Shown one piece after another: positions 9-26,553 of a stretch of 26,553 nucleotides of DNA. The stretch is taken from the IMG/VR virus record IMGVR_UViG_3300017761_007798, positions 1 to 26,553 of that record. One strand, given 5' to 3'. The notes under the pieces are model-generated. The model ran no database searches, had not been told where the DNA came from, and saw only the letters and a list, made by a program, of their open reading frames with translations. Position 1 is the stretch's first letter, and each line of letters opens with the position of its first letter. The stretch comes from a virus (lineage: Duplodnaviria > Caudoviricetes). The translations under genes and the position numbers were made by a program.

Positions 9-16
9 TATTTATA
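9..16 (+). promoter_or_regulatory. TATTTATA putative late-promoter box
   Basis: 5 nt upstream of ATG 22; recurring motif. Confidence 0.6.
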
Positions 17-21
17 ATGTG

Positions 22-2712
22 ATGGAAAATAATGGTATTTTAAAAAGTTTTGATTTACAGGACGAACTTAACAGTAAAATTTGGATTAAGGTAAAGGGTG
101 ACAACTACTTTATTTCACAAAAAGTTAGAGAAAAACTTTTGGAAATTGCTTACGAATTTATTGAGTTTCTAAATGTGGATATAATTGTTTCCGATGTTCA
201 TTTAACAGGGTCATTGGCAAATTATAATTGGTCACAATATTCCGATTTTGATTTACATATTATTGCAGATTTTGAACAATTCCCCAAAAACAAGTTGGAC
301 CTCTATAAGGAACTTTTAACACTAAAAAAAACAATTTTCAACTCAGACCAAAATATAAAAATATATGGGTATGATGTCGAACTTTACGCCCAAGACGAAA
401 ATGAAGAACATACCTCAACAGGTGTTTATTCTTTAATTTCAAATGATTGGATAGAAAAACCAAAAAAAGAAAAATTTGAAATTAACAAGTCGGTCCTTAA
501 AAAGAAGATAGACCAATGGACAGAAAAAATAGATAAAATTCTTGAGTCCGCCGAAGAAGAAAAAGACCTACAAAAATCCAAAAAAATTATTGATAACCTT
601 AAAACCAAATTAAAAGAATATAGAAAAATTGGTTTAGAGAAGGGTGGTGAAATGTCTTATGAAAATCTTGTGTTTAAATACTTGAGAAGAAGTGGACATA
701 TTGAGAAATTGTTTAGTTTCAAAAAAGAAAGATTGGATAAGGGACTTTCATTGAAGGAGTCTCTATTGGTTGAGATTGAGGTGTCAGATATTTCTAGTTT
801 ATCTAAATACAGAAGAGCAAAACTTCCAAAGAGGGAGTATTTTATGGTTCATCACACGGCAGGACTCGGAACTGCAGAAGGTGTTGTTAATGTTTTGAAT
901 ACTCCTACTCCCAAAAGACCTTACATATTGGGTGTACAGTGGGTTGTTGATGTCGATGGTAAAATTTATAGAACTTTACCGGAAGGTAATTTAGGTGCTC
1001 ACGTAGGAAACAACTCAAGAAATCCAAAAGTTTTTAATAGTAATACTGAAGGTGTTGAGGTTGTAGGTTTAGACGATGATGACATTAAAAAAAGACACGA
1101 TGAGGATATGTCGAAAGGTAAATTACCAAGACAAGCTGAAGCCGTTAGACAATTAGTAAAATCTTTGGGTTATTCTCTAAATCAATTAATTGGTCATGGT
1201 GAAGTATCAAATAATCGTCCACCGAGTGAAGGTAAAACAATTATTAATTATATAAAGAAGTATTGGGACAAGACTGGTGATTTTAAACTAGATATAACTG
1301 ATTTAAATAAGAACCAATCCACTTTACAACCGCCATTAGATAAATTAGTAATAACTAGTGGATATGGTAAAAGAGGGGGTAAAGAGCATGGAGGTGTAGA
1401 TTACGGAACCAAAACAGGAACACCAATAAAATCACCGGCAGATGGAAAAGTAACATCTGCAGATTTTGAGAATAATAACTGTGGTGGGACGCTTGCGATA
1501 CAACACGGAGATGGTTATAAAACTAGATATTGTCATGTAAGTGAATTTAAAGTATCCATCGGTGATGTCGTAAAACAAGGTCAAGTTGTTGCATTAACTG
1601 GAGGTGGTGAAGAAGATAAAGGAAAAGGAAATTCAAAAGGACCTCATTTACATTTTGAACTTTATCTAAATGGAAAAAACGTTAATCCTGAAGATTATTT
1701 GGGGTCAACAGTATCTACACCCGATTTTTCAAGAGGTGGCGGTAACGGTAGTTCAAAGGTTTTGGATGAGTTACTTGAAAATGCCGATAAGTCAGGGTTT
1801 TTAATAAAACTTAAAGAATTGGCAAAAACCGAAAAAAAATTATCGAATCAAAGTAGAAAAGGTAGTAGAATTCCTTACGATGAAGATGTGGAAAGGATGC
1901 AAATAGGTCTTCAATTTTTAGGTCACTCTTTACCTGTTTGGGGTATTGACGGTTTATTCGGCCCTGAAACCGAAAACGCTGTTACGTCTTTCCAAAAAAA
2001 GACTTCGTTGGATGAGAGTGGCGTTATGAGTCAGAAAGATTTACAATATTTATATGCAACATTAGTTAAAGAAGGTTTCGAAGAAGCTGACCTATCAAAA
2101 ATTGATTTCAAAGGAGGGTATAATGAAGATGTTCTTGATGTAAGTCCTGATGCGGTATCGTCCGATTTTGAAACTATGACTAAAATTATTGTGGATAATA
2201 TTGAGGGGGGTTATTATAATCCCGAATGGCACCGCCAATCAGCCATGGGACGTTCCGGTGAAACTATGTTCGGTATGGATAGAGTTTGGGGTTCAGATTT
2301 GTTTAAAACAGGGTCAGGTAAAGAGTTTTGGAGTATAATTGATAAAAATAAAAACGAAGACGTTTGGAAACACTATTACAAGGGGGGTTCTTTGGAGTCT
2401 GAATTATTAAAAATAGTTACACAGATAATGACTAAACATTATCAAGAATTATCTAATAGATTTTTATCGGATAAAGCAAAAAAACTAGTAGAATCTAATA
2501 ATGGATTAAAATTTCATTTTTATTATGCATCTTGGAATGGGAGTGGTTTCTTTGAATTATTCGCTAAAAAAATAAATCAAGCGGTTGATGATGGTATTGA
2601 AAGTCCTGAAAAATTATTGAGTATCGCTATAAACTCTAGACTTAATATGTCAACAATGAAAAAAAGTGGCGAAAAATTATTAAAAATATTCAAATCAAAT
2701 AATATTACATAA
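22..2712 (+). CDS. Multidomain protein: N-terminal Pol-beta-superfamily nucleotidyltransferase + Zn N-acetylmuramoyl-L-alanine amidase (Amidase_2-like) + M23 peptidase + peptidoglycan-binding domain + GH108-like lysozyme
   Basis: NTase motif TGSLANYNWSQYSDFDLH (GS-x-DxD, nt ~205-258) and YDVELY; amidase VHHTAG...GAHVG...NSNTEGVEVVG...LIGHGEV (~845-1230); M23 HGGVD...YCH...GPHLHFE (~1345-1700); PG_binding_1-like ERMQIGLQFLG...GIDGLFGPETENAVTSFQ (~1885-2050); IEGGYYNP...SGETMFGMD lysozyme-like motif (~2200 onward). ATG at 22 preferred over GTG at 19. Confidence 0.85.
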   Translation: MENNGILKSFDLQDELNSKIWIKVKGDNYFISQKVREKLLEIAYEFIEFLNVDIIVSDVHLTGSLANYNWSQYSDFDLHIIADFEQFPKNKLDLYKELLTLKKTIFNSDQNIKIYGYDVELYAQDENEEHTSTGVYSLISNDWIEKPKKEKFEINKSVLKKKIDQWTEKIDKILESAEEEKDLQKSKKIIDNLKTKLKEYRKIGLEKGGEMSYENLVFKYLRRSGHIEKLFSFKKERLDKGLSLKESLLVEIEVSDISSLSKYRRAKLPKREYFMVHHTAGLGTAEGVVNVLNTPTPKRPYILGVQWVVDVDGKIYRTLPEGNLGAHVGNNSRNPKVFNSNTEGVEVVGLDDDDIKKRHDEDMSKGKLPRQAEAVRQLVKSLGYSLNQLIGHGEVSNNRPPSEGKTIINYIKKYWDKTGDFKLDITDLNKNQSTLQPPLDKLVITSGYGKRGGKEHGGVDYGTKTGTPIKSPADGKVTSADFENNNCGGTLAIQHGDGYKTRYCHVSEFKVSIGDVVKQGQVVALTGGGEEDKGKGNSKGPHLHFELYLNGKNVNPEDYLGSTVSTPDFSRGGGNGSSKVLDELLENADKSGFLIKLKELAKTEKKLSNQSRKGSRIPYDEDVERMQIGLQFLGHSLPVWGIDGLFGPETENAVTSFQKKTSLDESGVMSQKDLQYLYATLVKEGFEEADLSKIDFKGGYNEDVLDVSPDAVSSDFETMTKIIVDNIEGGYYNPEWHRQSAMGRSGETMFGMDRVWGSDLFKTGSGKEFWSIIDKNKNEDVWKHYYKGGSLESELLKIVTQIMTKHYQELSNRFLSDKAKKLVESNNGLKFHFYYASWNGSGFFELFAKKINQAVDDGIESPEKLLSIAINSRLNMSTMKKSGEKLLKIFKSNNIT

Positions 2713-3005: not shown

Positions 3006-4397
3006 ATGGGAAAACTAAAACCTATCGGAAGTGAAAAGTTAGAAGGTCTTGAAAAAATCCAAAGAATAATGGAAATTGCAAGATATAAAGAAAATATACC
3101 CAACTCAATCAATGAGGTAAATTCAAATCATTACAATATAAAATTGGTTGACGGTAATACATACCATATCGAAAAAGAAAGAAATGGTTACGTAATTAAA
3201 AGAACCGTAAATGAGGGTCAGTTGGATTATATTGAACCTATGAAAAATAGAAAGTATTATCAATCTTATTCTCAAGCATTAAAACGTTTAAATTTGATTA
3301 CAAAAGAAGTTAATACTTTGTTAGGTAATGAAGAAGGAGTTTCATTGTTTTCTGAACAAAAAAAGTTTGTGTTAAAAACACCAAAGCCTGAAACACCACC
3401 GGCACCGGCACCGGCACCAATGCCGTCACCCGAACCAATGGCGGGAACAGAAACTACACCTGATATGGGTATGGACATGGGGTCTGAAATGCCAACTGAT
3501 GATATGCCTGATGATGATATGGGAATGGGTGAACCTTCAGACGATATGCCTGATGATGATATGGGAATGGGTGAACCTTCAGACGATATGCCTGAAGAGG
3601 ATGGTATTGTTTCATTCAAAACCATTCAGAAGTTAACCGGTAAATTAGGACAAAAATTAAGAAAAATTAATCAAGGTGAAGAACCAATATCTGCGGATGA
3701 TACAAAATATGTTATAAACTCTATTTTATCCGCACTTGATTTGTCTGTGTTGTCAGACGAAGATGTAGAAGAAATAATTGGTAGAATGGAAGATTCAGAT
3801 TTTGAATCTGAAGATGATTCTGATATGGAGGAACCGTCTGACGATATGGAACCTGAAGGACCGGAAATGGAAGAACCAATGCCTGAATTACCTGAAGGTG
3901 AAATGACTGAAGACGATATGAATGAATATCTTGAGGGTATGATTGGTGGAGAATATGATTTAGGGTTTAAAAAAGAACCAAAAGAAGTAAACATACCAAA
4001 GGCTATCGCTAGTGCATACGCCAAAGAAGCAAGAAATCAATTAGGAGATATGTTAGAATCGGACGATTTAGATGGAGTTGAGGGTATTTTTGACTCAGTT
4101 TTTTCAGAATCTAAAGTCGATAGTATTATTAAGTCATATTTCGTAAAAAACGATTCAGAAAAAAAATTCATACAAGAACAAAAACAAAAAAAGTTCTTAA
4201 CTGAAAAAGCGAAAAAAGTAAAAATTATGAGAGAGGTTAAAACATTGTCTGAATCATATCAGCAAGAAAGTATCTCATCAAAATTTTTGGACAGATATAA
4301 AAAAGCAAATTTCATAGGAAAAACTAATAAGAAAAATTTAGTTTTTGAAGTGAATGGTAAACAATACAAAATCACCCCAGACGGAGCAATTCTATGA
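3006..4397 (+). CDS. Acidic low-complexity protein, putative prohead core/internal head protein
   Basis: 463-aa ORF with Pro- and D/E/M-rich tracts, many L/I/F-x-E sites (SINEV, LFSEQ, FSESK, LSESY), located in the head module; ATGA overlap with the next gene. Confidence 0.7.
   Translation: MGKLKPIGSEKLEGLEKIQRIMEIARYKENIPNSINEVNSNHYNIKLVDGNTYHIEKERNGYVIKRTVNEGQLDYIEPMKNRKYYQSYSQALKRLNLITKEVNTLLGNEEGVSLFSEQKKFVLKTPKPETPPAPAPAPMPSPEPMAGTETTPDMGMDMGSEMPTDDMPDDDMGMGEPSDDMPDDDMGMGEPSDDMPEEDGIVSFKTIQKLTGKLGQKLRKINQGEEPISADDTKYVINSILSALDLSVLSDEDVEEIIGRMEDSDFESEDDSDMEEPSDDMEPEGPEMEEPMPELPEGEMTEDDMNEYLEGMIGGEYDLGFKKEPKEVNIPKAIASAYAKEARNQLGDMLESDDLDGVEGIFDSVFSESKVDSIIKSYFVKNDSEKKFIQEQKQKKFLTEKAKKVKIMREVKTLSESYQQESISSKFLDRYKKANFIGKTNKKNLVFEVNGKQYKITPDGAIL
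3501..3595 (+). repeat. In-frame 42-bp tandem repeat (about 2.3 copies; DMPDDDMGMGEPSD)
   Basis: gatatgcctgatgatgatatgggaatgggtgaaccttcagac at 3501 and 3543, partial copy at 3585. Confidence 0.95.
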
Positions 4398-4807
4398 GTT
4401 ATCTAATTTATGTTAATGGGCTTGGGCCAAACTATAAAGGTGATAACATTTATGAATTTATCTTTTCAGATGTTAAAGAAGAAGTTTGGGGAGAAGGTTG
4501 GGAATCAAAACCATCTAATGGGAATCCTCTACCCCCTAATATAGAGTTCATACGTAAAGTCGGGGTCTTGAAAAATGCGGAGATAAAACTCTCATTGATT
4601 CAGGACTCCGATTTTTTTTCAATGATTGACTCACTTGATGATGTAATAGCGTTGGCGTGGGAAAGTGATGACTCTGATATAAATTTCGACATCGAAAAAA
4701 GATTAGTTTTCAGATACGGTGAAGACGAAAAGAAAATAAAAGATAAACTATATGAACGAGATATAGTTTTAGAATTTGATAAACAAGTGGTTTATGAAAA
4801 AGAATAA
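4394..4807 (+). CDS. Hypothetical phage protein (137 aa)
   Basis: ATGA coupling with the upstream gene, globular-looking composition, overlaps the next start. Confidence 0.8.
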   Translation: MSYLIYVNGLGPNYKGDNIYEFIFSDVKEEVWGEGWESKPSNGNPLPPNIEFIRKVGVLKNAEIKLSLIQDSDFFSMIDSLDDVIALAWESDDSDINFDIEKRLVFRYGEDEKKIKDKLYERDIVLEFDKQVVYEKE

Positions 4808-5531
4808 ACTAGCATTTAAATTAATTGATATGGGACTCAAAGCAGAAACATTATCCAACTTAACAGAATCTCAATTAAGATTATTGTATAATAAATTAAA
4901 CGAGGGTAAAAAAGAAGCCAAAGAGGCAACAACCACCTACTCGCCTGATGAAAAAATACCTGCGGGTAAAGTTGACCCAAAAAAAGTTACAAAAAATTCT
5001 GATGGTTCTGTTTCGGTTGAGGAAACTAACGAAGCGAAGAAAAAAACAGGTAAAAAGAAATATAATCCTTTTGCAATATGTACAGCATCGGTTGGTCGTA
5101 AAGACAAGAAAAAATATGAAAGATGTGTAATGGGTGTTAAGGAATCAATTAGGGAAGGTAAAGACCCCGTAAATTTGTTTTTGGAAGAAAAGATTCTATC
5201 TTTGCTAGAAAAACATATTCAACCAAAAATAACTAAAGGAGAGTTTTTACAAATGATTTCAGAAACAGAAACCGCACCATCGAAACCAAAGGAGAAACAA
5301 AAAGAAAAGGAACGTAAGGGTCCTTTTGATGTTCCAAAAACAAGACCTAAAACCGCACCAAAGGCTATGGATGAGGCTGAAACGGCTGAACCTATTGTAA
5401 AACCTAAAACACCGACCACTAAACCAAAAACTCCATTTAGTCCTAAACCTGGAGTAAAACCGGCACCTAAAGCGGGTAAAAAATCAGTACCTACTTGGTT
5501 AAAGTGGGATAATATCGGTCTTAATTTTTAA
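4794..5531 (+). CDS. Lys/Pro-rich hypothetical protein, putative internal head protein
   Basis: ATG at 4794 (MKKNKL) preferred to TTG 4776; LTESQL helix, NPFAICTASVGR...YERCV Cys motif, duplicated P/K-rich tail. Confidence 0.75.
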   Translation: MKKNKLAFKLIDMGLKAETLSNLTESQLRLLYNKLNEGKKEAKEATTTYSPDEKIPAGKVDPKKVTKNSDGSVSVEETNEAKKKTGKKKYNPFAICTASVGRKDKKKYERCVMGVKESIREGKDPVNLFLEEKILSLLEKHIQPKITKGEFLQMISETETAPSKPKEKQKEKERKGPFDVPKTRPKTAPKAMDEAETAEPIVKPKTPTTKPKTPFSPKPGVKPAPKAGKKSVPTWLKWDNIGLNF

Positions 5532-5540
5532 TTTAAAGTC

Positions 5541-6773
5541 ATGGCAAAATATAGAAAAAACATTAGTGAAGCACCAATTGATTACGAAGGTCCTGAAAGA
5601 ATGGACCCAAGTATTGAGAAAAAAATTATAGATAAAACTACTCCTTATGCTGGCCATCCTGGTCTTCCAAAATTAGACCGCGACGTTGTTGAGATAATTT
5701 CATCCCAAAGATTCAAACAGTCTGTTGAGAACGTTAGAAGATTTATGGGTGACACCTCATCAATTCAAGGACCTCCACAACAAGTTCTTATGGGATTGAT
5801 GATGTCCGCCATGAAATTGTTTCCAAAGATTGCGAGTATTGAGCAAGACCATAAAGAATTTTTGGAAAAATTGGCGGTTGATTTAGTTGTTAAAGAAATG
5901 GCGATTCCTGATGGAGCCCTACAATTTGAAGCCGAATTGGAATCGGGTATGATGGGCGCCGCGGAAGGAATGAGAGGTGAGTCGGAAGAACCTTCACCTG
6001 ATGAAATTAAAGACGCATTTGGTGGTGCAAACGAAAATGCCGATGAATTAGAAGCGTTTATGGATGCCATGGAACAGTTTGACCAAGAAAAGGCGAAAAG
6101 AAGATTTATTAACGCATTAATTGGTGGAGCATCCAAAAAAGGTCACTATATGTATCAATTAGTTGGTGAAGAATTAAATAGATTACATCCTGAATTAGTT
6201 CGTCTATACGGTATGTCTCAATCTATATTAGACCATTTATATTGGATGTATCCTGAAAGTATGTCATCTGCTATGGCGGCCGGTGGTGGAGGTCAAGCAG
6301 GCCAATCAGAAATTGATACTGAAACCGACCCCCCTACTGTAAAGGCTCGTGGTATTACTTTCCCAATTTTATTACACGAATTAGTTAAAGGTGTTTTCGA
6401 AGTATTAGGAACGCACGGATTACCTGATGACCCTCGTCAAGCGGAAATGGTTATCGCATCACAAGATACACTTCCTTCTGAGATTTGGGACTTAAGATTA
6501 GGACCTATTTTTTGGGAGAAATTCACTGCGGCATATCCTGATGAATTATTTGATGAAGATACAAAATATATTCAACACTACTTATTCCAAAGATTTTCAG
6601 CACTTAATCCTAAGAAATTTTTCAAATTAACAAAATTCATTTTGTCGGATGACCCTAAAGGTAAACAAGTTCTTCAAATTATGGTTGATGAAATCATAGA
6701 GGAATTGAAACAACAAGATAGAGATTCTATGTTTGGAGGTAATGATGACGATGAGGATGAACCATTCGTATAA
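5541..6773 (+). CDS. Hypothetical protein upstream of terminase (410 aa)
   Basis: Long ORF with TAATG coupling to terL; contains LLHELVKG (HExxK). Confidence 0.8.
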   Translation: MAKYRKNISEAPIDYEGPERMDPSIEKKIIDKTTPYAGHPGLPKLDRDVVEIISSQRFKQSVENVRRFMGDTSSIQGPPQQVLMGLMMSAMKLFPKIASIEQDHKEFLEKLAVDLVVKEMAIPDGALQFEAELESGMMGAAEGMRGESEEPSPDEIKDAFGGANENADELEAFMDAMEQFDQEKAKRRFINALIGGASKKGHYMYQLVGEELNRLHPELVRLYGMSQSILDHLYWMYPESMSSAMAAGGGGQAGQSEIDTETDPPTVKARGITFPILLHELVKGVFEVLGTHGLPDDPRQAEMVIASQDTLPSEIWDLRLGPIFWEKFTAAYPDELFDEDTKYIQHYLFQRFSALNPKKFFKLTKFILSDDPKGKQVLQIMVDEIIEELKQQDRDSMFGGNDDDEDEPFV

Positions 6774-10447: not shown

Positions 10448-11173
10448 ATGAAAATAGGTGTATTAAAATCAAGAGTTGAAAAATTACTTTCCGAATCTTA
10501 CGGAAAAGGAACTTTTAAAGAAGAGATTAAAAATTTCAATAGAAATGTTTTGTCAAATAAAAACATATCTAAATTATTTTTTCTTTATGACGAGTTATCG
10601 ACAAATAAAGGATATGAACAAAAATTGGCTGAGGATTTTGTTTTTGAATCAATCACGATGTTTGAAAACATTATCAATAAGACAGACAAAAAAGATTTGG
10701 AAAAACTTAAAAGGTGGTCAATTGGTATTAACTCTCACAATCAATACACGGATATAGATAATTTGTTTTATAATACAGGAGATGTTTTACACTTGGAAAA
10801 CAAAGTTAGAAGTAAAAAAGTAATTGTTGAGGGATTAAAAAAGACCCCTATTGTTGGAAACAAGGAAACAATTCTTTTACCTTTGAGTTCTATGGTTAGA
10901 GTTGCAAATAAATCCATTGAAGAATTTGTATCTAATTTAAATGAATCAGAAAAGAAAGAACTTAATTTATTTCTTAAAGAGGATGAGTTAGTTTTAGTCG
11001 AACGATTTCAAAGCCTTAAGGACGAGGCGGTAGTTAAATTGGTCGTTGTTTTAGAATCTGAATCTGACGAATCAGTTAAAAGTACTATCAACGAGACAAT
11101 AGATAATATCAAAACTAAGAAATTTGACAGATTAGAGTATTTTAAGTTAAAGAACTTGGTTGATACCCTATAA
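10448..11173 (+). CDS. Hypothetical helical protein in head module (241 aa)
   Basis: Long ORF directly after portal, preceded by TATTTATT box; position analogous to T4 prohead core genes 67/68. Confidence 0.75.
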   Translation: MKIGVLKSRVEKLLSESYGKGTFKEEIKNFNRNVLSNKNISKLFFLYDELSTNKGYEQKLAEDFVFESITMFENIINKTDKKDLEKLKRWSIGINSHNQYTDIDNLFYNTGDVLHLENKVRSKKVIVEGLKKTPIVGNKETILLPLSSMVRVANKSIEEFVSNLNESEKKELNLFLKEDELVLVERFQSLKDEAVVKLVVVLESESDESVKSTINETIDNIKTKKFDRLEYFKLKNLVDTL

Positions 11174-11242
11174 ATTTTGACATTTTGACAAAATTCATCT
11201 AACTTTTTTTCAGAAAAAATAAACTCTGAAAAAAATGAGATA

Positions 11243-11695
11243 ATGAAGAAAGGGAAAACCGCTAAATTAAGCGGATTCAAATCGTCAAAAATTACTTATG
11301 GTACTGTAGATTCAAAAAATTTAAAATCAATTTACATTAACATTCAAACTTGGGTTCAACCAAAAGACGATTATGAGAAATGGACAAGAATTGTCCTAAA
11401 TATGTCAAGAGCAGTTAAACACACTGTATTTAATTGTCTTGACAAGGAAATATTTGACGAAAAATTTATCGCAGATTTAGACTTAAGAACGAGCGGAATT
11501 CAATACAAAAAAAGGTCTTTTATGAATTTAGAAATTAATCTTTATTTATTAGAAGAGATGGATTTCAAATCAACAGAATTAAAAAAATCAATTAAATCTA
11601 TTGTAAGTTGTATTCATTCAGACATCTTCAGAAAAAATGAATATTTTAATTTTCACTTAAGTAAAAAAGACAAAACTGAACTTGTGGAGGTATAA
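11243..11695 (+). CDS. Hypothetical phage protein (150 aa)
   Basis: Intact ORF between head genes, with its own upstream regulatory-looking region. Confidence 0.75.
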   Translation: MKKGKTAKLSGFKSSKITYGTVDSKNLKSIYINIQTWVQPKDDYEKWTRIVLNMSRAVKHTVFNCLDKEIFDEKFIADLDLRTSGIQYKKRSFMNLEINLYLLEEMDFKSTELKKSIKSIVSCIHSDIFRKNEYFNFHLSKKDKTELVEV

Positions 11696-11731: not shown

Positions 11732-12460
11732 ATGAACGAACTTAAAATATTGAAACCCTATGAATCTGGAAAAGGGATTCTTATTGAGTATGATGCAGGA
11801 TATGTATCACCAAAAGAATTTGGAAATCAAAATATTTTGATGGAATCCAAAAGTTTCATGGACCACAGTAAACCTTTTGAGTTTTATGCGGTTCTACAAA
11901 AATATAATACACCAAATCGTAATGGTAGGATTTATCCTGAAAAAATATTAAAAAGAGAAGCTGAAAATTATAAGAAAATAATTAATAAGGGTGTTTCGCT
12001 TTCTGAGTTGAATCACCCTGAATCATCTTTAATTGATTTGGATAGAGTTTCTCATATTATCACTGAAGTATGGTGGGATGGAATAATATTGATGGGTAAA
12101 TTAAGATTACTAACATCACCCGGATTCCATGAAAGAGGGATTTGTTCTACAAAGGGAGATTTAGCAGCAAATTACTTAAGACAAGGCGTTACTTTAGGTA
12201 TTTCATCAAGAGGTGTTGGTTCCCTTAAAAAGATAGGAGAACAAAATGAAGTTCAGGACGATTTTGAATTAATTTGTTTTGACTTAGTTTCTTCACCGTC
12301 AACACCAGGTGCGTATCTTTTTTCTAAACCTGAAGAAAGGGGTAATTTTGAGGAGAACTTGGAGGAGGAGAATAAAACACAAAGAGAACGTCACGTAGGA
12401 CCCGAAGCAAACAATTCATTAGATTTAATGAAACGATTAAATACATATCTCGATAAGTAA
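11732..12460 (+). CDS. gp21: Prohead protease (T4 gp21-like)
   Basis: NRNGRIYP, ELNHPE (catalytic His), LDRVSH, GISSRGVGS (catalytic Ser), FDLVSSPSTPGA. Confidence 0.95.
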   Translation: MNELKILKPYESGKGILIEYDAGYVSPKEFGNQNILMESKSFMDHSKPFEFYAVLQKYNTPNRNGRIYPEKILKREAENYKKIINKGVSLSELNHPESSLIDLDRVSHIITEVWWDGIILMGKLRLLTSPGFHERGICSTKGDLAANYLRQGVTLGISSRGVGSLKKIGEQNEVQDDFELICFDLVSSPSTPGAYLFSKPEERGNFEENLEEENKTQRERHVGPEANNSLDLMKRLNTYLDK

Positions 12461-14455: not shown

Positions 14456-16261
14456 ATGGGAGCATTATTAGAATCAGGTCTTGTTGGTAACATCGGGTTA
14501 AAACACCTTAAAGTTATCAAAGAAGATACTATCAACAAATGGGACAGATTAGGGTTCCTTGAAGGTCTTAAAGGCCACCTAAAAGAAAATGTTGCACAAC
14601 TTTATGAAAACCAAGCATCACATTTGATTAACGAAGCATCTTCAGAATCTTCTAACGGAGCATTCGAAACAGTTGTTTTCCCAATCGTGAGACGTGTTTT
14701 CTCTAAATTGTTAGCGAACGAAATCGTATCAGTACAAGCGATGAACTTACCAATTGGTAAATTGTTCTACTTCGTACCTAAAATCCAAGGATATTCAGGT
14801 GGTACATCTGACATGTCAGGAGAACATTATTCACCTGTAGGTTCACCAGGTAATTATCCGGGTAATCCAAATTCAGGTTATGATGGTTCAGGAGCATATG
14901 CTAAAAATCTTTATGATTTATTTTATGAAGGTGGTGAAGCAGGACTTGACCCTCCAGGATTGTTCGATTATTCAAAAGGTCGTTGGTCTGCGGTAACAGG
15001 TGTAACTGTTACTTATGCATGGAGTCCAACAACCGGAGAGTTAGTATCAACTGGTTATACAAGTGGCTCATACAGAAAAGCTATCATCGTTATGTCAGGT
15101 TTTTCTAATTCAGGTGCAGGAAAATTAATTGGCCCTGATGGTCAAGAGATTGATTCTGAAACATTCCTTTCTGACCTTAAAATTATCGGTGTTACAACTA
15201 ACACAACTACATCGGCAAATGCTTTAAATCCATATTTATTCAGAGTTGTAACTCAAAAATATGGAAAAGGTATGGTACAATACGGAAGTAATGCATCGAC
15301 AACATTCCCAGGTTCAGGAAATGGTGGTTCATATAACGATATCTGTACTGCGGCAGGTTTCATCTTCTTAGAAGTTGACTTACAAGTTCCTGCAAGTTTA
15401 GGTTCAGATTCTATGGACGGATACACAGGTTCAACATTCTCTTCGTCGACAGCTACAAACAACGCATTTACTGCGGTTTGGAGACGTTATCAAGAACTTG
15501 AATTTGAAGATAAGATTGGTGAGGTTTCTTTTGACCTACAGTCAGTAACTGTATCGGTTTCTGAAAGAAAACTAAGAGCACAATGGTCACCTGAACTTGC
15601 ACAAGACGTTGCAGCATTCCACAACATCGATGCGGAAGCTGAATTGACAGCGTTATTGTCTGAACAAGTTGCAGCTGAAATCGACCGTGAAATTTTACGT
15701 GACTTACGTAAAGGAGCGGCTTGGAACCTTCGTTGGGATTACAACGGATGGAAGCGTCTGTCTTCTACAGGTGCTACACCATACACTCAAAAAGACTGGA
15801 ATCAAACTTTGATTACTGCAATTAACCAAATTTCTGCACAAATTCACAAGTCAACTCTTCGTGGTGGTGCTAATTGGATTGTAGTATCTTCTGAGGTTTC
15901 TGCAATTTTTGATGACTTGGAATATTTCCACGTATCAAACGCTTCACCTGAGCAAGACCAATACAACATGGGTATTGAAAGAGTAGGTACATTAGCAGGT
16001 CGTTACCAAGTGTTCCGTGACCCTTACTTCCCACCAAACACGGTGTTGATTGGTCACAAAGGTACTTCGTTACTTGACACAGGTTACATTTACGCACCGT
16101 ATGTACCTCTACAATTAACTCCAACTATGTACAATCCATTTAACTTCACACCTATCAAAGGTATTATGACACGTTACGCTAAGAAAATGGTTAATAACCG
16201 TTTCTACGGACGTATCACAGTTGATGGTGTACGTACATTCGACTTGAGAGAATTGAGATAA
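14456..16261 (+). CDS. gp23: Major capsid protein (T4 gp23-like, HK97 fold)
   Basis: QLYENQ, PIVRRVFSKLLANEIVSVQAMNLPIGKLF, RKLRAQWSPELAQD...HNIDAEAELTALLSEQVAAEIDREI, YAPYVPL, GIMTRYA. Confidence 0.96.
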   Translation: MGALLESGLVGNIGLKHLKVIKEDTINKWDRLGFLEGLKGHLKENVAQLYENQASHLINEASSESSNGAFETVVFPIVRRVFSKLLANEIVSVQAMNLPIGKLFYFVPKIQGYSGGTSDMSGEHYSPVGSPGNYPGNPNSGYDGSGAYAKNLYDLFYEGGEAGLDPPGLFDYSKGRWSAVTGVTVTYAWSPTTGELVSTGYTSGSYRKAIIVMSGFSNSGAGKLIGPDGQEIDSETFLSDLKIIGVTTNTTTSANALNPYLFRVVTQKYGKGMVQYGSNASTTFPGSGNGGSYNDICTAAGFIFLEVDLQVPASLGSDSMDGYTGSTFSSSTATNNAFTAVWRRYQELEFEDKIGEVSFDLQSVTVSVSERKLRAQWSPELAQDVAAFHNIDAEAELTALLSEQVAAEIDREILRDLRKGAAWNLRWDYNGWKRLSSTGATPYTQKDWNQTLITAINQISAQIHKSTLRGGANWIVVSSEVSAIFDDLEYFHVSNASPEQDQYNMGIERVGTLAGRYQVFRDPYFPPNTVLIGHKGTSLLDTGYIYAPYVPLQLTPTMYNPFNFTPIKGIMTRYAKKMVNNRFYGRITVDGVRTFDLRELR

Positions 16262-16713: not shown

Positions 16714-17427
16714 ATGACAAACGATAAAAAAATAAATGAGGCAACTTCAACATCCATTTCTTCGGGTAAATACCAACAACCTATGGGTCCTGGTATTCGT
16801 TTATTTAATAAACAGGAAATGCAACCCTATTATATACCAACATCAAAATATGATGATGCAGAATTGGCTTACGATAGTTATGATGGTAAAATGTCTACAC
16901 CTAAAAATGAAATAAAGAAAAAAGAATCTCAAGCAAGAAAAATGTCTAAATATATTAAAAACCACCCAACCGAAAGTGATGATGAAGGTAATAATATTAA
17001 TAGTGGAAACGGACCTTCAAAACCTTTAAAAAAAGAAAACATTGACCAACTTATTCATAATATATTAAAAGAAGATTTAGCCGTTTGGTTTGGAACCAAA
17101 AAGAAACCTAAAGGTTCAAAACAACCGGGAGGTCCTTGGGTTAACATTTGTCGTAAAAAAGAGGGTGGTGGACATCCTCCTTGTGGTAGACCTGAAGCAT
17201 CTTCAAAAGGTTATCCGAAATGTCGTGCCGCAGGTGTTGCCTCCAAAATGACTGATTCACAAAAGAAAAGTGCTTGTCAACAAAAAAGAAGTGCTGAAAA
17301 ATCAGAACCTAAGACGGGTACGGGGAACAAACCAACAATGGTTTCTTACAAACCTAAGAAGAAAAAAACAAACGAAAACTTAAGAAGTGTCATTAAGAAT
17401 ATTCTTAATGAAATTAAATCTTCTTAA
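16714..17427 (+). CDS. Basic, Cys-containing hypothetical protein, putative internal head protein
   Basis: TATTTATA box at 16684; INEA/LKED/LNEI sites; WF...WVNIC...HPPCGR...YPKCR domain. Confidence 0.8.
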   Translation: MTNDKKINEATSTSISSGKYQQPMGPGIRLFNKQEMQPYYIPTSKYDDAELAYDSYDGKMSTPKNEIKKKESQARKMSKYIKNHPTESDDEGNNINSGNGPSKPLKKENIDQLIHNILKEDLAVWFGTKKKPKGSKQPGGPWVNICRKKEGGGHPPCGRPEASSKGYPKCRAAGVASKMTDSQKKSACQQKRSAEKSEPKTGTGNKPTMVSYKPKKKKTNENLRSVIKNILNEIKSS

Positions 17428-17876: not shown

Positions 17877-18380
17877 TTAACAGTACGGTGGAGAACATCT
17901 TTTTTTACCATCTGAACCTGGCATTGTTCCTTTACAAACCTGTACTCCGTAACCGTTCGAATATGCCGAGGGAAATACTTTGTATTTTGATTTGGCGGCG
18001 GAATACCCCCTCGCACACAATTTTGTTCCTGTTTTTTTTCTTCCTGTTTTTTTTCTTTCTTCTTCCATCATACCTGTGAAAGATTCATCCTCAATATCTT
18101 GTTTACCATCTCCTTTAGTATGATTCATCATAAAATCAAACACTTGGTCCATATTATTTTTGGCTTCAGATATATGGTCCTGAGCCCAATCGTGACCGTC
18201 ATCTAATATCTCAGTTACCATATCTTGGTCTAACTCTAATAACATATCACATTGTCTTCTCATTTGTTCTAAATTTGAAAAGAACATATATCTATCAGAA
18301 TAATCTTCGTGAGATTCATTTAATACTTTTTTAACAATACGACTTAAATCGGATTCCGTTAACTTAACTACTTTTTTCAT
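17877..18380 (-). CDS. Hypothetical protein with N-terminal KLTESDL helix and C-terminal PSAY/Cys domain, putative internal head protein
   Basis: MKKVVKLTESDLSRIVKKVLNES; KLCARGYSAAKSKYKVFPSAYSNGYGVQVCKG; ATGA coupling with the upstream gene. Confidence 0.8.
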   Translation of the reverse strand: MKKVVKLTESDLSRIVKKVLNESHEDYSDRYMFFSNLEQMRRQCDMLLELDQDMVTEILDDGHDWAQDHISEAKNNMDQVFDFMMNHTKGDGKQDIEDESFTGMMEEERKKTGRKKTGTKLCARGYSAAKSKYKVFPSAYSNGYGVQVCKGTMPGSDGKKRCSPPYC

Positions 18381-23934: not shown

Positions 23935-24681
23935 TTATTTTGCCATATTTTGAATTAAATCAAAATAAACTTTTTTATACTTTTTCATACTTGACCTAAT
24001 TTCTTTGGTTGATAAATTTGTCATATCTCTCAATGAGAGTAATATAATGTTTTTATTGAACTTGTTGTTATCGGTACTTACGAATATTTGGTCGTAATTA
24101 ATGAACACCTCGTAAAGAGATTCTCCTAATTTTTTTTCGTTTTCTGATAAATTTTGGTCCTGTAAAATTACATACAATCTTGCCAAAAAAGATTCTATAA
24201 TCCTTTCAGTGTTAAAATCATCATCATTATCTATGTAGTAGATTAAATCCTCACGGTCGTTGTTCTCCAAATCTGAAGATATATCTTCATAAGAGATTTT
24301 CCTATTCATTTCTTTTTGGTCTTTTATTATTTGACCCATAAGATAATTTTTACAAATAGTACCGAAATAGGAGTACGCTTTCTTTTCTTTTGACGGTTTG
24401 AATTTGTCAATTTTCGTCATCAAAAAAGAGTGAGTGTCAGTATGGATTTCTTGGAAGTCCATATCTTTTCGGTATAATTTATATCGTCTAATAATTGACG
24501 ATATCATCTTATCTAATGGTTTTCTAAGACTTAGGTTGTATATTTTGTTTTTTTCCTCAGATGTGGAAGCTGACAAATATAATCTTACCGCAAGTTCTTC
24601 TTTTTCATCAAAATAATTATCCGATTTTGGTTTTCTCCCTTTCTTTTTTAAATCATCAGTTTGTGTTTCATCGGGATTCAT
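23935..24681 (-). CDS. Phage sigma-70-family factor, T4 gp55-like late sigma
   Basis: NYF N-terminal motif and KIDKFKPSKEKKAYSYFGTICKNYLMGQIIK, matching sigma region 2.3-2.4 (KFDPxKGxKFSTYA; gp55 FDETKYKNPHAYIT). Confidence 0.7.
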   Translation of the reverse strand: MNPDETQTDDLKKKGRKPKSDNYFDEKEELAVRLYLSASTSEEKNKIYNLSLRKPLDKMISSIIRRYKLYRKDMDFQEIHTDTHSFLMTKIDKFKPSKEKKAYSYFGTICKNYLMGQIIKDQKEMNRKISYEDISSDLENNDREDLIYYIDNDDDFNTERIIESFLARLYVILQDQNLSENEKKLGESLYEVFINYDQIFVSTDNNKFNKNIILLSLRDMTNLSTKEIRSSMKKYKKVYFDLIQNMAK

Positions 24682-25487
24682 TAAACAGTTTCAGGTTCAA
24701 ATTTTATATCCCTGTCGACAGCGAAGAAATGTTCTTTTTTTGCGGAATCAATCCAAAATTTTATTTCTTCAGGCGTCATAACATCAGAGCCGTTTTTATA
24801 ATTCCAAAAAATTGACCCTTCTCTGAGATTAAGGTGTTTATAACCAATTTTTGGTATGGTCATAATCTTTAAATTGTTATACGTTAATCTCAACATTAGT
24901 TCATAAACAAATGTTAGTTTTATCGAAGGTTTAAATTTACCGTGTTGTTCAAAAACTTCTTTTTTAATAACCATGCCAGATGATTGGAAATTTTGATAAT
25001 TTTGTAGAGTTTCGTTTGTTAAAATCCCCATCTCTTGTGAGAAATTTGCTGCGAATGTTGCCTCATTAGTAAATCCTGCAAATAATCCTTTACTATCTAC
25101 GTCAACAACAATTGGTAAAAACGCATCAACATCTGAATAAGCGTCAGAATAACGTTTTACATTCTTAAACCAAATATTAGAGTATTCGTCATCAAATTCA
25201 TAAAAAGAAACCCATTTAGATTTAGAATTCTCTACACCATGATTAATCTGTGCTTGATAATTAGGGGTATCCTTCCAAACTAATTTTTTAACATTAAGTT
25301 CTCCAAAATCAAAACTTTCTAAATGACTAACTAATTTGTCTTCGTCGGTATGAACAATAATTAATTCATTGAAATTAGTTTTTTGTGTTTTTAATGCTTC
25401 GATGCTTTTCTCGAACAATTCTGTAAAGTCTTTAGCCGATGCTGACTTTATTGGTAGTATTACTGATAAGTCTATAAAGTTTTCCAT
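24681..25487 (-). CDS. Glycosyltransferase, GT-A fold (GT2-like)
   Basis: DLSVILPI, ELIIV, INHGVENSKSKWVSFYEFDDEY (acidic DxD-like motif), SSGMVIKKEVFEQHGKF. Confidence 0.85.
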   Translation of the reverse strand: MENFIDLSVILPIKSASAKDFTELFEKSIEALKTQKTNFNELIIVHTDEDKLVSHLESFDFGELNVKKLVWKDTPNYQAQINHGVENSKSKWVSFYEFDDEYSNIWFKNVKRYSDAYSDVDAFLPIVVDVDSKGLFAGFTNEATFAANFSQEMGILTNETLQNYQNFQSSGMVIKKEVFEQHGKFKPSIKLTFVYELMLRLTYNNLKIMTIPKIGYKHLNLREGSIFWNYKNGSDVMTPEEIKFWIDSAKKEHFFAVDRDIKFEPETV

Positions 25488-25488
25488 A

Positions 25489-26553
25489 TTAAGATTCTGT
25501 TGTTTCTAATTTATTATGTTGTTCAACAAACGATTCTAATCTAACACTTAAGTAGTTTTTAAAAGTTTCTAAAGTGGTGGTTTCGAATTTTTTAATGTCA
25601 GAAAATCCGTCTGATGTCGTCTGAATGTTATTGTATAATTCTTCGTTAATATTATCCTCCAACCAATTGTGTATGAAATCAGAAACAAAATCCACAATTT
25701 GGTTTGTTTCTCTAATCCAGACACCATTATCTTCGTTCATCCAAGATGGGAATAGATTTGGAATTTTACCAATTACAGGTACTCCGACTTTCATTGATTC
25801 TAATGGGAATGTACCAAAACCACTTGTTGGGTCAATCCAAACCGAAAGGAAACAATCTTGTAACCCCTTAGCGAATTCAACTTCAGTTAAATTTCTCATA
25901 TCTCTAAAGGTTACCCAACGATACTGAGGAAACTTTAGATAAAACGTCTTAATCAAAGTCATTGTATCTCTTTGGTCTCTAGAATGAATCGCAATAATTG
26001 GTTTAGGTGGTAATTCTTGTTTTTTGAAATTCTCTGAAATAACAGGTTCAATAATATCAAAAGATACGTTCTTCATAATGTCCGATACATATTCTTTTTG
26101 TAGTTCAGATGTTACGATACATTTGGTAAAACCAAATTGTGCCCAAGTTTGTCCGGGTTGGAGAGTTTCGACAACATGGTCGTATGCTTGACACAATACA
26201 ATTTTAGCACAAGGTAAATTTGTAAGTTGTGGCATAACAAAACCATAAAGTTCAGGTACGATGATAAAATCTTCAGGGGATACCTCCAAATTTTGACCTT
26301 CAATAACTTTGTGAGGTAATTCATCCATAAACTCTTGACCTAACCAACTTGCCACACCGAAATAATCTGATTTTTCATGAAGGATAATTGGGTTGTATCC
26401 ATTTTTCTTTAGAGTCATGGCCATCCTATAGATATAGGAAACCGATGCTTTAGCGTTACCTTTTGTGTCTTGAACCATAAAATAAATTCTTGCGTTTTTA
26501 TTTTTTAGGTTATCAATAGAGTTTTCTAATTTTTGAATTAATTCTTGATTCAT
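25489..26553 (-). CDS. Glycosyltransferase, GT-B fold (GT4-like)
   Basis: DFIIVPE, SGFGTFPLESMKVGVPVIG nucleotide-sugar-binding motif; ATG at the window edge, so the start cannot be confirmed. Confidence 0.8.
   Translation of the reverse strand: MNQELIQKLENSIDNLKNKNARIYFMVQDTKGNAKASVSYIYRMAMTLKKNGYNPIILHEKSDYFGVASWLGQEFMDELPHKVIEGQNLEVSPEDFIIVPELYGFVMPQLTNLPCAKIVLCQAYDHVVETLQPGQTWAQFGFTKCIVTSELQKEYVSDIMKNVSFDIIEPVISENFKKQELPPKPIIAIHSRDQRDTMTLIKTFYLKFPQYRWVTFRDMRNLTEVEFAKGLQDCFLSVWIDPTSGFGTFPLESMKVGVPVIGKIPNLFPSWMNEDNGVWIRETNQIVDFVSDFIHNWLEDNINEELYNNIQTTSDGFSDIKKFETTTLETFKNYLSVRLESFVEQHNKLETTES

Follow-up and report, generated by a model that had tools for sequence, protein, structure and literature searches.

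The window, i.e., the whole stretch of 26,553 nucleotides that was analysed, comes from a large freshwater virus of bacteria. Its first positions hold a single open frame of 896 amino acids, in which a nucleotidyltransferase (NTase) is followed by a cargo of cell-wall hydrolase domains. Residues of this protein are counted from the ATG at 22. The following features were considered:

9..15, + strand: TATTTAT box, 13 nt before the ATG, a likely late promoter element
22..2712, + strand: open reading frame for NTase and hydrolase cargo, from ATG 22 to TAA 2712
22..759, + strand: NTase of the Pol-beta superfamily (aa 1–246), with catalytic core G63/S64, D75, D77, E120 and a C-terminal helical bundle
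751..759, + strand: L244-K245-E246, predicted prohead-protease site and point of cargo exchange, from the end of DNA similarity and motif enrichment
766..774, + strand: L249-V250-E251, second candidate site
835..1209, + strand: Amidase_2 domain (H277/H278, E345, H392; conserved E403)
1384..1689, + strand: peptidase M23 domain (H456-x-x-x-D460 and H542-x-H544; Pfam)
1879..2034, + strand: PG_binding_1 domain (Pfam E 1.9e-8, above the curated cut-off)
2158..2709, + strand: glycosidase domain of the lysozyme superfamily (invariant E728 and T748; folded model and structure alignment)
11732..12460, + strand: T4 gp21-like prohead protease (Peptidase_S77), predicted processing enzyme (Pfam E 1.5e-22; PHROG)
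14627..14635, + strand: I-N-E60 in the Gp23-type capsid protein, predicted propeptide cut

The initial annotation had read the frame as a fusion of NTase, amidase, M23 endopeptidase, PG-binding and GH108-like muramidase domains; the first four were borne out by motifs and by Pfam or PHROG profiles, whereas the assignment to GH108 was not. A mis-assembly joining two genes, which had been named as an objection, was ruled out, since X4 contigs, from reads of another sample, cross the joints at 447–1123 (0 differences) and 1100–1934 (1 difference), an X5 contig (681–1079) likewise crosses the joint, and the homologue P0002 has the same domain architecture at 91% identity. Run X2, possibly the source itself, contains the entire stretch. 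Three contigs identical to the frame were found in an RNA run (X20) at a depth of 2.3–2.5; such contigs show neither level nor strand, and DNA carry-over is possible. Transcription of the NTase family in Lake Rotsee was weak in two of five phages looked up and absent in the other three.

As to the "late box" claimed previously, TATTTAT is not over-represented in the window (19 copies, 17.1 expected), but its placement is better than that of its permutations: 10 of the 19 copies lie at most 60 nt upstream of a start on the same strand, as compared with 4/24 for the best letter permutation. Copies also precede the portal, protease and scaffold genes, and among related loci, TATTTA[TC] precedes the NTase gene in 50 of 55 cases. 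The claimed place in the head module was confirmed, the gene order in the window being that of the head module of bS21-encoding phages, namely KTSC, fam14, hypothetical genes, TerL, portal, protease, DUF4494, scaffold and capsid (PMC9723584). The major capsid protein is of the Gp23 type (profile E 2e-72); its site, which reads I-N-E60-A, is conserved and was present in 34/34 capsid N-termini examined. At the site of the bS21 gene (reverse strand, between portal and protease) the window has a gap of 70 nt without bS21; in related loci this interval holds a frame of 59–64 amino acids in 48 of 67 cases, one of which is Ribosomal_S21 (E 8e-9). Hosts of the bS21 phage group are predicted to be Bacteroidetes.

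The nucleotidyltransferase domain

By motif and predicted fold, residues 1–246 are an intact NTase of the Pol-beta superfamily. The motif hG[GS]-x9-13-DxD and a third acidic residue are present (G63-S64, D75-x-D77, E120), and R201, N215, K219 and R222 of the helical bundle are invariant. All 211 long forms keep G63, D75, D77, H79 and E120, and D75 and D77 are kept in all 133 short forms as well; a dead NTase serving as a carrier was ruled out by the invariance of the catalytic residues in the long forms. Family phrog_36119 matched residues 11–245 with E 1.4e-42; Pfam NTP_transf_2 and Polbeta matched the window protein weakly (E 0.003–0.005, under the cut-off), and NTP_transf_2 was found in 47/53 family members at E ≤ 0.05. 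The N-terminal region had been expected to model as an NTase fold, and it did: the AlphaFold model of residues 1–248 reached a pLDDT of 87, and its Foldseek matches were mostly Pol-beta NTases, each with E > 0.001 (best 1.2e-3). A wide VIA structure search with this model returned helical bundles alone, and the ESM Atlas viral clusters only, either labelled NTP_transf_2 or unlabelled.

The family is large, with 3853 clusters at 50% identity, and essentially viral. Members occur in Lak megaphages, cluster C cyanophages, Molly/Colly and Cr30, and the gene was single-copy in all five near-complete genomes tested. A cellular enzyme family was also considered and rejected: the 16 loci from a profile search of genome contigs (alignment A1) were nearly all metagenome-assembled or uncultured records, plausibly binned phage DNA.

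Hydrolase domains and the joint

The Amidase_2 profile matched with E 5e-10 (40.2 bits; curated cut-off 26). Zinc amidases of this type usually have a triad of His, His and Cys/Asp. Here, the two His are present, no Cys/Asp follows H392, and E403 is found in 10/10 close copies; thus, the third zinc ligand would appear to be atypical. Peptidase_M23 was recognised with E 7.5e-27, above its curated cut-off. For the last domain no credible match to Pfam or PDB was obtained by sequence. Its model (pLDDT 91) aligns to the lysozyme superfamily, with SagA, which we take to be a GH108 member, as first match (Z 8.7 and rmsd 3.5 over 136 aligned residues), level with a chitosanase (Z 8.4) and followed by chains of the T4-lysozyme type. 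A hallmark of GH108 muramidases is an EGGY motif which carries the catalytic Glu; E-G-G-Y is invariant in 62/62 members of the last-domain family, and the glycoside hydrolase 108 model matched none of these 62 at E ≤ 0.1. The alignment thus supports a lysozyme fold, with GH108 as a candidate family. The earlier proposal that all three bond classes of peptidoglycan could be cut is therefore not secure, the amidase being without the usual Cys/Asp ligand as well. The last domain is also encoded by separate genes; where these have a long N-terminal extension, L/I/V/M-x-E occurs at residues 15–30 in 15/20 (dereplicated), as against 30/189 background windows.

The cargo is swapped at the joint. An exchange of the C-terminal part between phages had been suggested as a check, and the NTase was indeed found constant and the hydrolase set exchanged: in 5/6 close loci the DNA similarity to the window stops at nt 749–758, i.e., at the codons of L-K-E246, and in the sixth, which shares the amidase, it extends to 1284. 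In relatives the NTase either stands by itself or is joined to hydrolases from at least seven further families. Since the gene at this locus encodes nothing but the NTase in many relatives, the NTase needs no hydrolases. Among the matches listed (120 of 599), all 120 fusions contained a Pfam family related to peptidoglycan; the combinations were many, even at an NTase identity of 95–99%.

Enrichment of a predicted cleavage motif was found at the same place. Of the 90 fusions left after dereplication at 70%, 71 had [LIVM]-x-E at offsets 28–32 (46/62 at 60%), with a background of 8.0% within the NTase body and 6.7% within the cargo; these counts overstate independence, because homologues are related, and only the Glu is informative, because the hydrophobic residue belongs to the conserved domain end. 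A Glu at offset 27–28 was present in 81/90 fusions versus 26/51 proteins which end with the NTase, 15 of the latter stopping before offset 28. The joint Glu is thus found also in half of the stand-alone forms.

The link itself could perhaps be a tolerated by-product, neighbouring head-cargo genes having been joined by stop loss or recombination, with the protease re-separating the products and the hydrolase tail nearly neutral for fitness. This explanation, which leaves room for packaging and departs from the main one only on the question of selection for the link, is considered improbable. In its favour, the NTase tree has fused and stand-alone members intermixed (14 changes as compared with 28.9 with shuffled labels; 108 rows), some fusions have only a PG-binding domain left as cargo, and P0037 and P0040 retain a leader of the L-x-E type behind the joint; yet one subclade consistently has the wall-related partners described above, and the catalytic residues of M23 and glycosidase are intact.

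Packaging, processing and possible delivery

T4 gp21 cuts after L/I-X-E, according to the accessible part of PMC9026906. The joint fits this rule of a T4-type capsid protease, and the protein is thus likely to be packaged in the head, separated into its parts and passed on to the host during infection. Support for packaging in virions, as had been proposed, comes from this joint, from the variable cargo and from phage S-CREM2. Its ORF156 (126012–126725), a stand-alone form 35% identical over 239 aa to the NTase of the window, was detected in the virion proteome with 6 unique peptides and a low coverage of 15.2% (PMC10665884, Table 3); its authors caution that such proteins may be carry-over from the CsCl gradient. 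ORF156 starts with M-K-K-L-I-S-E, and by inspection its virion-detected neighbours gp154 and gp155 have early L/I-x-E sites, the undetected gp157–159 none. A homologue, P0279, has its NTase fused to a module which matches a stretch of the S-CREM2 virion protein gp160 with 83% identity over 35 aa; for the window frame at 16714–17427, similarity to gp160 was not significant (E 0.06). No virion proteome is reported in the accessible part of the Molly paper. T4 internal head proteins need a cleavable N-terminal leader, the capsid targeting sequence of 10–19 aa (accessible parts of PMC9026906 and PMC5694885). In the window protein no [LIVM]-x-E followed by a small residue was found before residue 175, and the NTase domain begins at residue 3, which speaks against packaging; several distant NTase homologues have motif-bearing leaders.

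Late timing, packaging and cutting of a head polyprotein, with the prohead protease as the cutter, are considered likely. The single enzyme of four activities envisaged originally was not upheld; the protein is rather probably a polyprotein cut in the head, many relatives having the NTase alone. As a whole, we judge the following course of events probable, with some reserve. The chain would be expressed late and likely loaded into the prohead, where the gp21-like protease of the phage would cut at L-K-E246 and so separate the NTase from the hydrolase part. During infection both would exit from the head; the hydrolase part could loosen peptidoglycan around the entry site, and the NTase, on arrival in the cytoplasm, would move a nucleoside monophosphate onto a host target, most likely a protein. 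Ejection with digestion of the wall at entry is the more delicate part, to which we give a little less than an even chance. T4 internal proteins enter the cytoplasm (accessible part of PMC9026906), a destination where a wall hydrolase has no substrate, and this counts against the model.

Alternatively, the cargo might be a late multi-domain endolysin or wall remodeller, which acts from inside at lysis and remains unpackaged, the fusion coupling expression only. Domains such as these four are typical of endolysins, an N-terminal targeting leader is absent, and the complete genome G005, with a fused NTase, gave no match to a GH19 endolysin, which is present in 3/4 genomes with a short NTase. However, the fourth of these (G003) likewise gave no GH19 match, and G005 has a separate amidase of 201 aa without a leader, beside genes resembling membrane proteins; therefore, a lysis enzyme exists elsewhere than in the NTase fusion. 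Such an enzyme was present in 5/5 near-complete genomes. Since the homologous NTase was found in virions, and since the L-x-E joint and the leader-bearing stand-alone cargo genes would be left unexplained, an endolysin is considered improbable.

As to the substrate of the packaged NTase, sequence comparisons favour a protein (NMPylation), although only tentatively; RNA ends and other substrates are each less probable, and a signalling nucleotide as product less probable still. The AMPylase domain of DrrA/SidM (E 2e-4) was the sole PDB match by sequence with E < 0.001, and SidM_N matched 11/53 family members, GlnD and MntA six each (E at least 0.004). All named families (GlnD/GlnE, SidM, MntA, ANT, CD-NTase, CCA, RlaP) gave weak partial matches only. 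The protein might be packaged and cut alike while its NTase acts on RNA, repairing tRNA or extending 3' ends, or produces a nucleotide that serves as signal or decoy. MTPAP-like_central matched 32/53 members (best E 5e-4), and CdnE was first in Foldseek, with further CD-NTases, aminoglycoside NTases, the CCA-adding enzyme and TENT5 in the list; all of these are weak (query TM ≤ 0.27, Foldseek E at least 1.2e-3), and the only protein of known structure below E 0.001 is the protein AMPylase mentioned. Fusion partners among distant members include 2H/Acb1-like, RNase_T and NUDIX domains; these follow the L-x-E rule at the joint as well and could be no more than co-cargo. The Cr30 homologue has tRNA genes on both sides, and other Pol-beta NTases serve RNA repair in jumbo phages (PMC7824862). 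As a whole, this alternative is regarded as unlikely.

Comparison with known systems

The best sequence matches to the catalytic core, i.e., DrrA/SidM, GlnD and the MntA antitoxin, cover about 85 residues (E at least 2e-4; NCBIfam matches weak, E at least 0.004), with no shared C-terminal architecture shown. A description of the fusion or its family was not found in titles and abstract openings, a search with most subscription journals outside its scope. That the architecture might be annotated already proved true of one label: fam14 of the bS21 phages, matched by position and label rather than sequence, bears the automatic label "putative peptidase M23 (7%) // NTP_transf_2 (21%)" in 42 rows of Supplementary Table 2 of Chen et al. 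2022 (PMC9723584). The main text, searched for M23, nucleotidyl and peptidase, gave no match, so the pairing is a table label only; the window phage differs from this group in having no bS21 gene.

As far as the accessible part of Iyer et al. 2017 (PMC5512222) goes, polyvalent proteins of phages and conjugative elements also combine unrelated activities in one chain, with proposed processing into units, and among them are lysozymes and DD-peptidases, for which a part in breaching the wall at entry has been proposed. In contrast, the window protein has a 246-aa NTase with a helical bundle, in a head module of a lytic-type phage, and no such peptidase was found: MPTase/LPD domains were absent by Pfam (E ≤ 0.05) from it and from 50 + 80 homologues (best 5 families per protein).

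Further counterparts are T4 IPI-III and Alt, as described in the accessible parts of PMC9026906 and PMC5694885, which share the T4-type head module, a gp21-like protease and L/I-x-E at a domain boundary. Like Alt, the NTase is predicted to modify host molecules, and a homologue of it was found in virions; Alt is an ADP-ribosyltransferase, and an injected NTase would be its nucleotidylating counterpart. Unlike the T4 internal proteins, the window protein has a predicted internal cut which frees two functional pieces, a peptidoglycan-hydrolase cargo and no cleavable leader. On the boldest reading, which is rather doubtful, a single injected enzyme, so far undescribed, would be common to thousands of phage lineages and would disarm or rewire the host within the first minutes; with S-CREM2, cultured and with the protein in its virion, the question of injected cargo is directly testable. 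The cargo should also be a pool of new peptidoglycan hydrolases, including a lysozyme-fold family outside the assigned families.

It is conceivable, if rather doubtful, that T4-like phages of lake Bacteroidetes carry in their heads a hypervariable wall-cutting kit, held by a protease-cleavable joint to an injected NMP-transferase. A contractile-tailed phage would then open its way into the cell with enzymes borne in the head. The podoviral head lysins T7 gp16, SP6 gp36 and phiKMV gp36 resemble it in being peptidoglycan hydrolases inside the head (a location predicted here), and the head-internal lysins listed in the accessible part of PMC5380687 are all podoviral; thus, a swappable head set in a T4-type phage would widen the modes of wall penetration known from that source. 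Those lysins make up an extensible tail and are structurally essential, whereas the cargo described here is optional and hypervariable, in a group reported as myoviral.

The fusion gene and its nucleotidyltransferase

A single frame of the 26.5-kb virus record, from the ATG at 22 to the TAA at 2712, encodes 896 amino acids (numbered from this ATG). Pfam matches above the cut-off were Amidase_2, Peptidase_M23 and PG_binding_1; the N-terminus gave only weak matches to nucleotidyltransferase (NTase) models, and residues 11–245 correspond to phrog_36119 (PHROGs; function unknown). The fusion of NTase and wall-hydrolase domains ("cargo") proposed in the initial annotation is real, since contigs of sequencing runs X4 (0 differences) and X5 (4 differences) cross the NTase-amidase joint and the homologous protein P0002 (91% identity) has the same architecture. 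The entire stretch is present in contigs of run X2, which may be the source of the record.

The NTase was correctly recognized as intact. Its catalytic residues G63-S64, D75, D77 and E120 are present; G63, D75, D77, H79, E120, R201, N215, K219 and R222 were invariant in 211/211 forms of at least 400 aa, and D75 and D77 also in 133/133 forms of at most 280 aa. The predicted model (54 sequences, pLDDT 87) consists of an alpha/beta core and a helical bundle; Foldseek searches against PDB yielded CdnE, AAD(9), ANT(6), CdnG, CCA-adding enzyme, TENT5, MNT and DrrA, none reaching E ≤ 0.001. Among 53 diverse members, NTP_transf_2 matched 47, MTPAP-like_central 32, SidM_N 11, and GlnD and MntA 6 each. 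On the basis of residues, model and profiles, membership in the Pol-beta superfamily is therefore secure, and matches to named NTase families are weak and partial. The best PDB sequence match was the AMPylase domain of DrrA (E 2e-4; 0.002 with a wider profile). From weak sequence kinship, transfer of NMP to protein (protein NMPylation) is preferred as its job, a possible but rather doubtful assignment; the alternative would be RNA end addition or synthesis of a nucleotide signal.

The family comprises 4934 proteins of 136–434 aa and 599 of 492–1568 aa (3853 clusters at 50% identity) and is represented in 45 phage records, among them Lak, cluster C cyanophages, Molly/Colly and Cr30; a prokaryote genome collection yielded only 16 loci. 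Two tandem NTase copies were seen in the homologues P0266, P0284, P0311 and P0354.

Cargo domains and the joint

Zinc ligands of Amidase_2 enzymes are usually His, His and Cys/Asp. The amidase domain retains both His as well as the G-V-E glutamate; no Cys/Asp follows H392, and E403 is kept in 10/10 close copies, so that its catalytic activity is uncertain. Both zinc motifs are present in the M23 domain. In the last domain, E728 and T748 were invariant in 62 sequences, and its predicted fold (pLDDT 91) resembles lysozyme-superfamily structures (SagA, Z 8.7; chitosanase, 8.4; then T4-lysozyme types). The earlier designation as GH108-like muramidase holds for the superfamily fold; GH108 itself is a tentative assignment, as a Pfam search gave no family match and chitosanase was similarly close.

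A wall-related Pfam family was found in 120/120 fusions among the matches listed (of 599); rescanning 50 of the 120 gave M23, Amidase_2, VanY, Phage_lysozyme2, GH19, Glucosaminidase and Beta-lactamase2, in widely varying order. The C-terminal part does vary between homologues, as the initial annotation had suggested checking: the cargo of P0002–P0005 differs despite 95–99% NTase identity. In a set of 80 longer representatives, out of 85 chosen, wall domains occurred on the closer members, and distant members carried GNAT, NUDIX, 2H/Acb1-like, RNase_T, ParB, methyltransferase, ankyrin or no known domain. In a tree built from 108 dereplicated NTase rows, where some of the short entries may stem from truncated gene calls, wall-cargo fusions were confined to one subclade and interleaved with stand-alone forms (14 fused/stand-alone changes versus 28.9 with shuffled labels). 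P0006, P0023 and P0034 contain an unannotated cargo segment, S-x-H ... A-V-D ... H-I-H, without Pfam match, which we take to resemble an M15-type peptidase.

The NTase ends with L-S-L-K-E246. With 370/377 proteins anchored, [LIVM]-x-E was found at offsets 28–32 in 71/90 fusions (dereplicated at 70% identity), in 55 exactly at the E246-equivalent position, against 7–8% in stretches of equal size elsewhere. Two caveats apply: the hydrophobic position belongs to the NTase domain, and the sequences are related. Glu at offset 27–28 was present in 81/90 fusions versus 26/51 proteins ending with the NTase, 15 of which stop before offset 28. DNA similarity of the window to 5/6 close loci ends at nt 749–758. 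The capsid protein has I-N-E60-A in 34/34 N-termini among the matches listed. According to the parts of the T4 literature considered, gp21 cleaves after L/I-X-E (PMC9026906), and Alt, which is trimmed at both termini, is ejected together with the internal proteins (PMC9026906, PMC5694885).

Gene order, TATTTAT boxes and hints of packaging

The position in a head module, noted initially, is borne out by the genes downstream: TerL, T4-like portal, S77 protease, DUF4494 and Gp23 capsid. A 137-aa neighbour is common to 51/58 IMG/VR loci, most of which have a stand-alone NTase (~245–270 aa) at the place of the fusion gene. The order agrees with that in the bS21-encoding phages reported by Chen et al., described in the portions consulted as myoviruses of 293–331 kb with predicted Bacteroidetes hosts (PMC9723584). 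Supplementary Table 2 of that work lists the corresponding gene as fam14, labelled M23 // NTP_transf_2 (42 rows); the main text contains no mention of it. A bS21-like ORF occupies the corresponding spot in 48/67 related loci and is absent from the window (11173–11243), its closest relatives and altogether 19/67 loci (L078 among those compared); between the same pair of genes, its gain or loss appears to have been clean.

TATTTAT precedes the fusion ORF, portal, protease and scaffold genes; 10/19 copies in the window lie within 60 nt of a start, and 50/55 related NTase genes have a box of this type.

9–15, 2766, 8581, 10424, 11711, 12841, 16684, 19884, 23927 (sense strand): TATTTAT(A) boxes upstream of genes

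The box reads as the T4 late promoter in reverse-complement orientation. The NTase homologue of cyanophage DSL-LC03 has a T4-oriented A-rich box in its place, and a distinct late sigma factor may be at work in the window's phage group. Since the box is shared with portal, protease and scaffold genes, we infer late timing of the fusion gene. In the portion of the Lake Rotsee data considered, the family, looked at by itself, was transcribed at a low level in 2/5 phages and not at all in 3/5.

Several other features were observed. A 64-aa ORF (2790–2984) with its own TATTTAT box lies between the NTase gene and a 463-aa gene; it occurs in the related loci L005, L007 and L009 and is apparently absent from L006, L008 and L033. 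Four conserved hypothetical genes between NTase and TerL (3006–6773), kept in most related loci, had no credible Pfam or PHROG match; two of them, rich in L-x-E sites, may be core or scaffold proteins. The 601-aa capsid protein (14456–16261) has a Gly/Ser/Thr-rich insertion of ~200 aa between its Gp23-matching parts. At 24681–26553 on the minus strand, a cluster of otherwise unknown genes is headed by two glycosyltransferase genes (GT2, E 6e-6; GT1-like, weak).

Virion packaging, as initially suggested, is partly supported: S-CREM2 gp156, a homologue with 35% identity, was detected in the virion proteome of this cultured phage (Table 3, 6 peptides; PMC10665884), but it is a stand-alone form, and the authors, in the sections considered, warn of possible carry-over. 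By eye, L/I-x-E sites occur in the detected gp154, gp155, gp156 and gp160, at an early position in gp154–gp156, and the undetected gp157–159 have no early site. The last-domain glycosidase is also encoded by separate genes, with L/I/V/M-x-E at residues 15–30 in 15/20 of those with long extensions versus 16% background, and a TATTTAT-type box at 24/48 distinct loci. In P0037 and P0040 a leader of this glycosidase type is still found after the joint, which suggests that their cargo was once a separate gene, later fused. Separate genes of the lysis type occur in near-complete relatives (PG-binding with GH19 in 3/5; a 200-aa amidase in 5/5, including G005 with its fused NTase).

Small Cys/Lys-rich modules behind L/I-x-E sites (17877–18380, minus strand; 16714–17427, plus strand) are likely further head cargo; the former, which begins with a helical leader whose last residues are L-N-E22, is similar to a part of the S-CREM2 virion protein gp160 (E 5e-4). 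Several recurring leader types of 20–25 aa ending L/I-x-E precede many unrelated domains in these phages (loci L144, L147, L150–L227, L234, L236) and may form a family of capsid-targeting sequences that exceed those of T4 in length.

Proposed mechanism and known systems

The fusion chain would probably be made late, enter the prohead and be cut at E246. Ejection of both pieces, with local digestion of the wall by the cargo, has a little less than an even chance; it is less sure because T4-type cargo enters the cytoplasm and the head-internal lysins named in the part of PMC5380687 considered are podoviral. An N-terminal leader is absent in the window's NTase subclade, which the mechanism leaves unaccounted for.

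A literature search, judged at title and abstract level, found no published description of the NTase family or the fusion; a jumbo-phage survey, in the portion considered, names RlaP, CCA and Thg1 NTases (PMC7824862). The protein would work like T4 Alt and the T4 internal proteins and like polyvalent proteins as described in the sections of Iyer et al. considered (PMC5512222).
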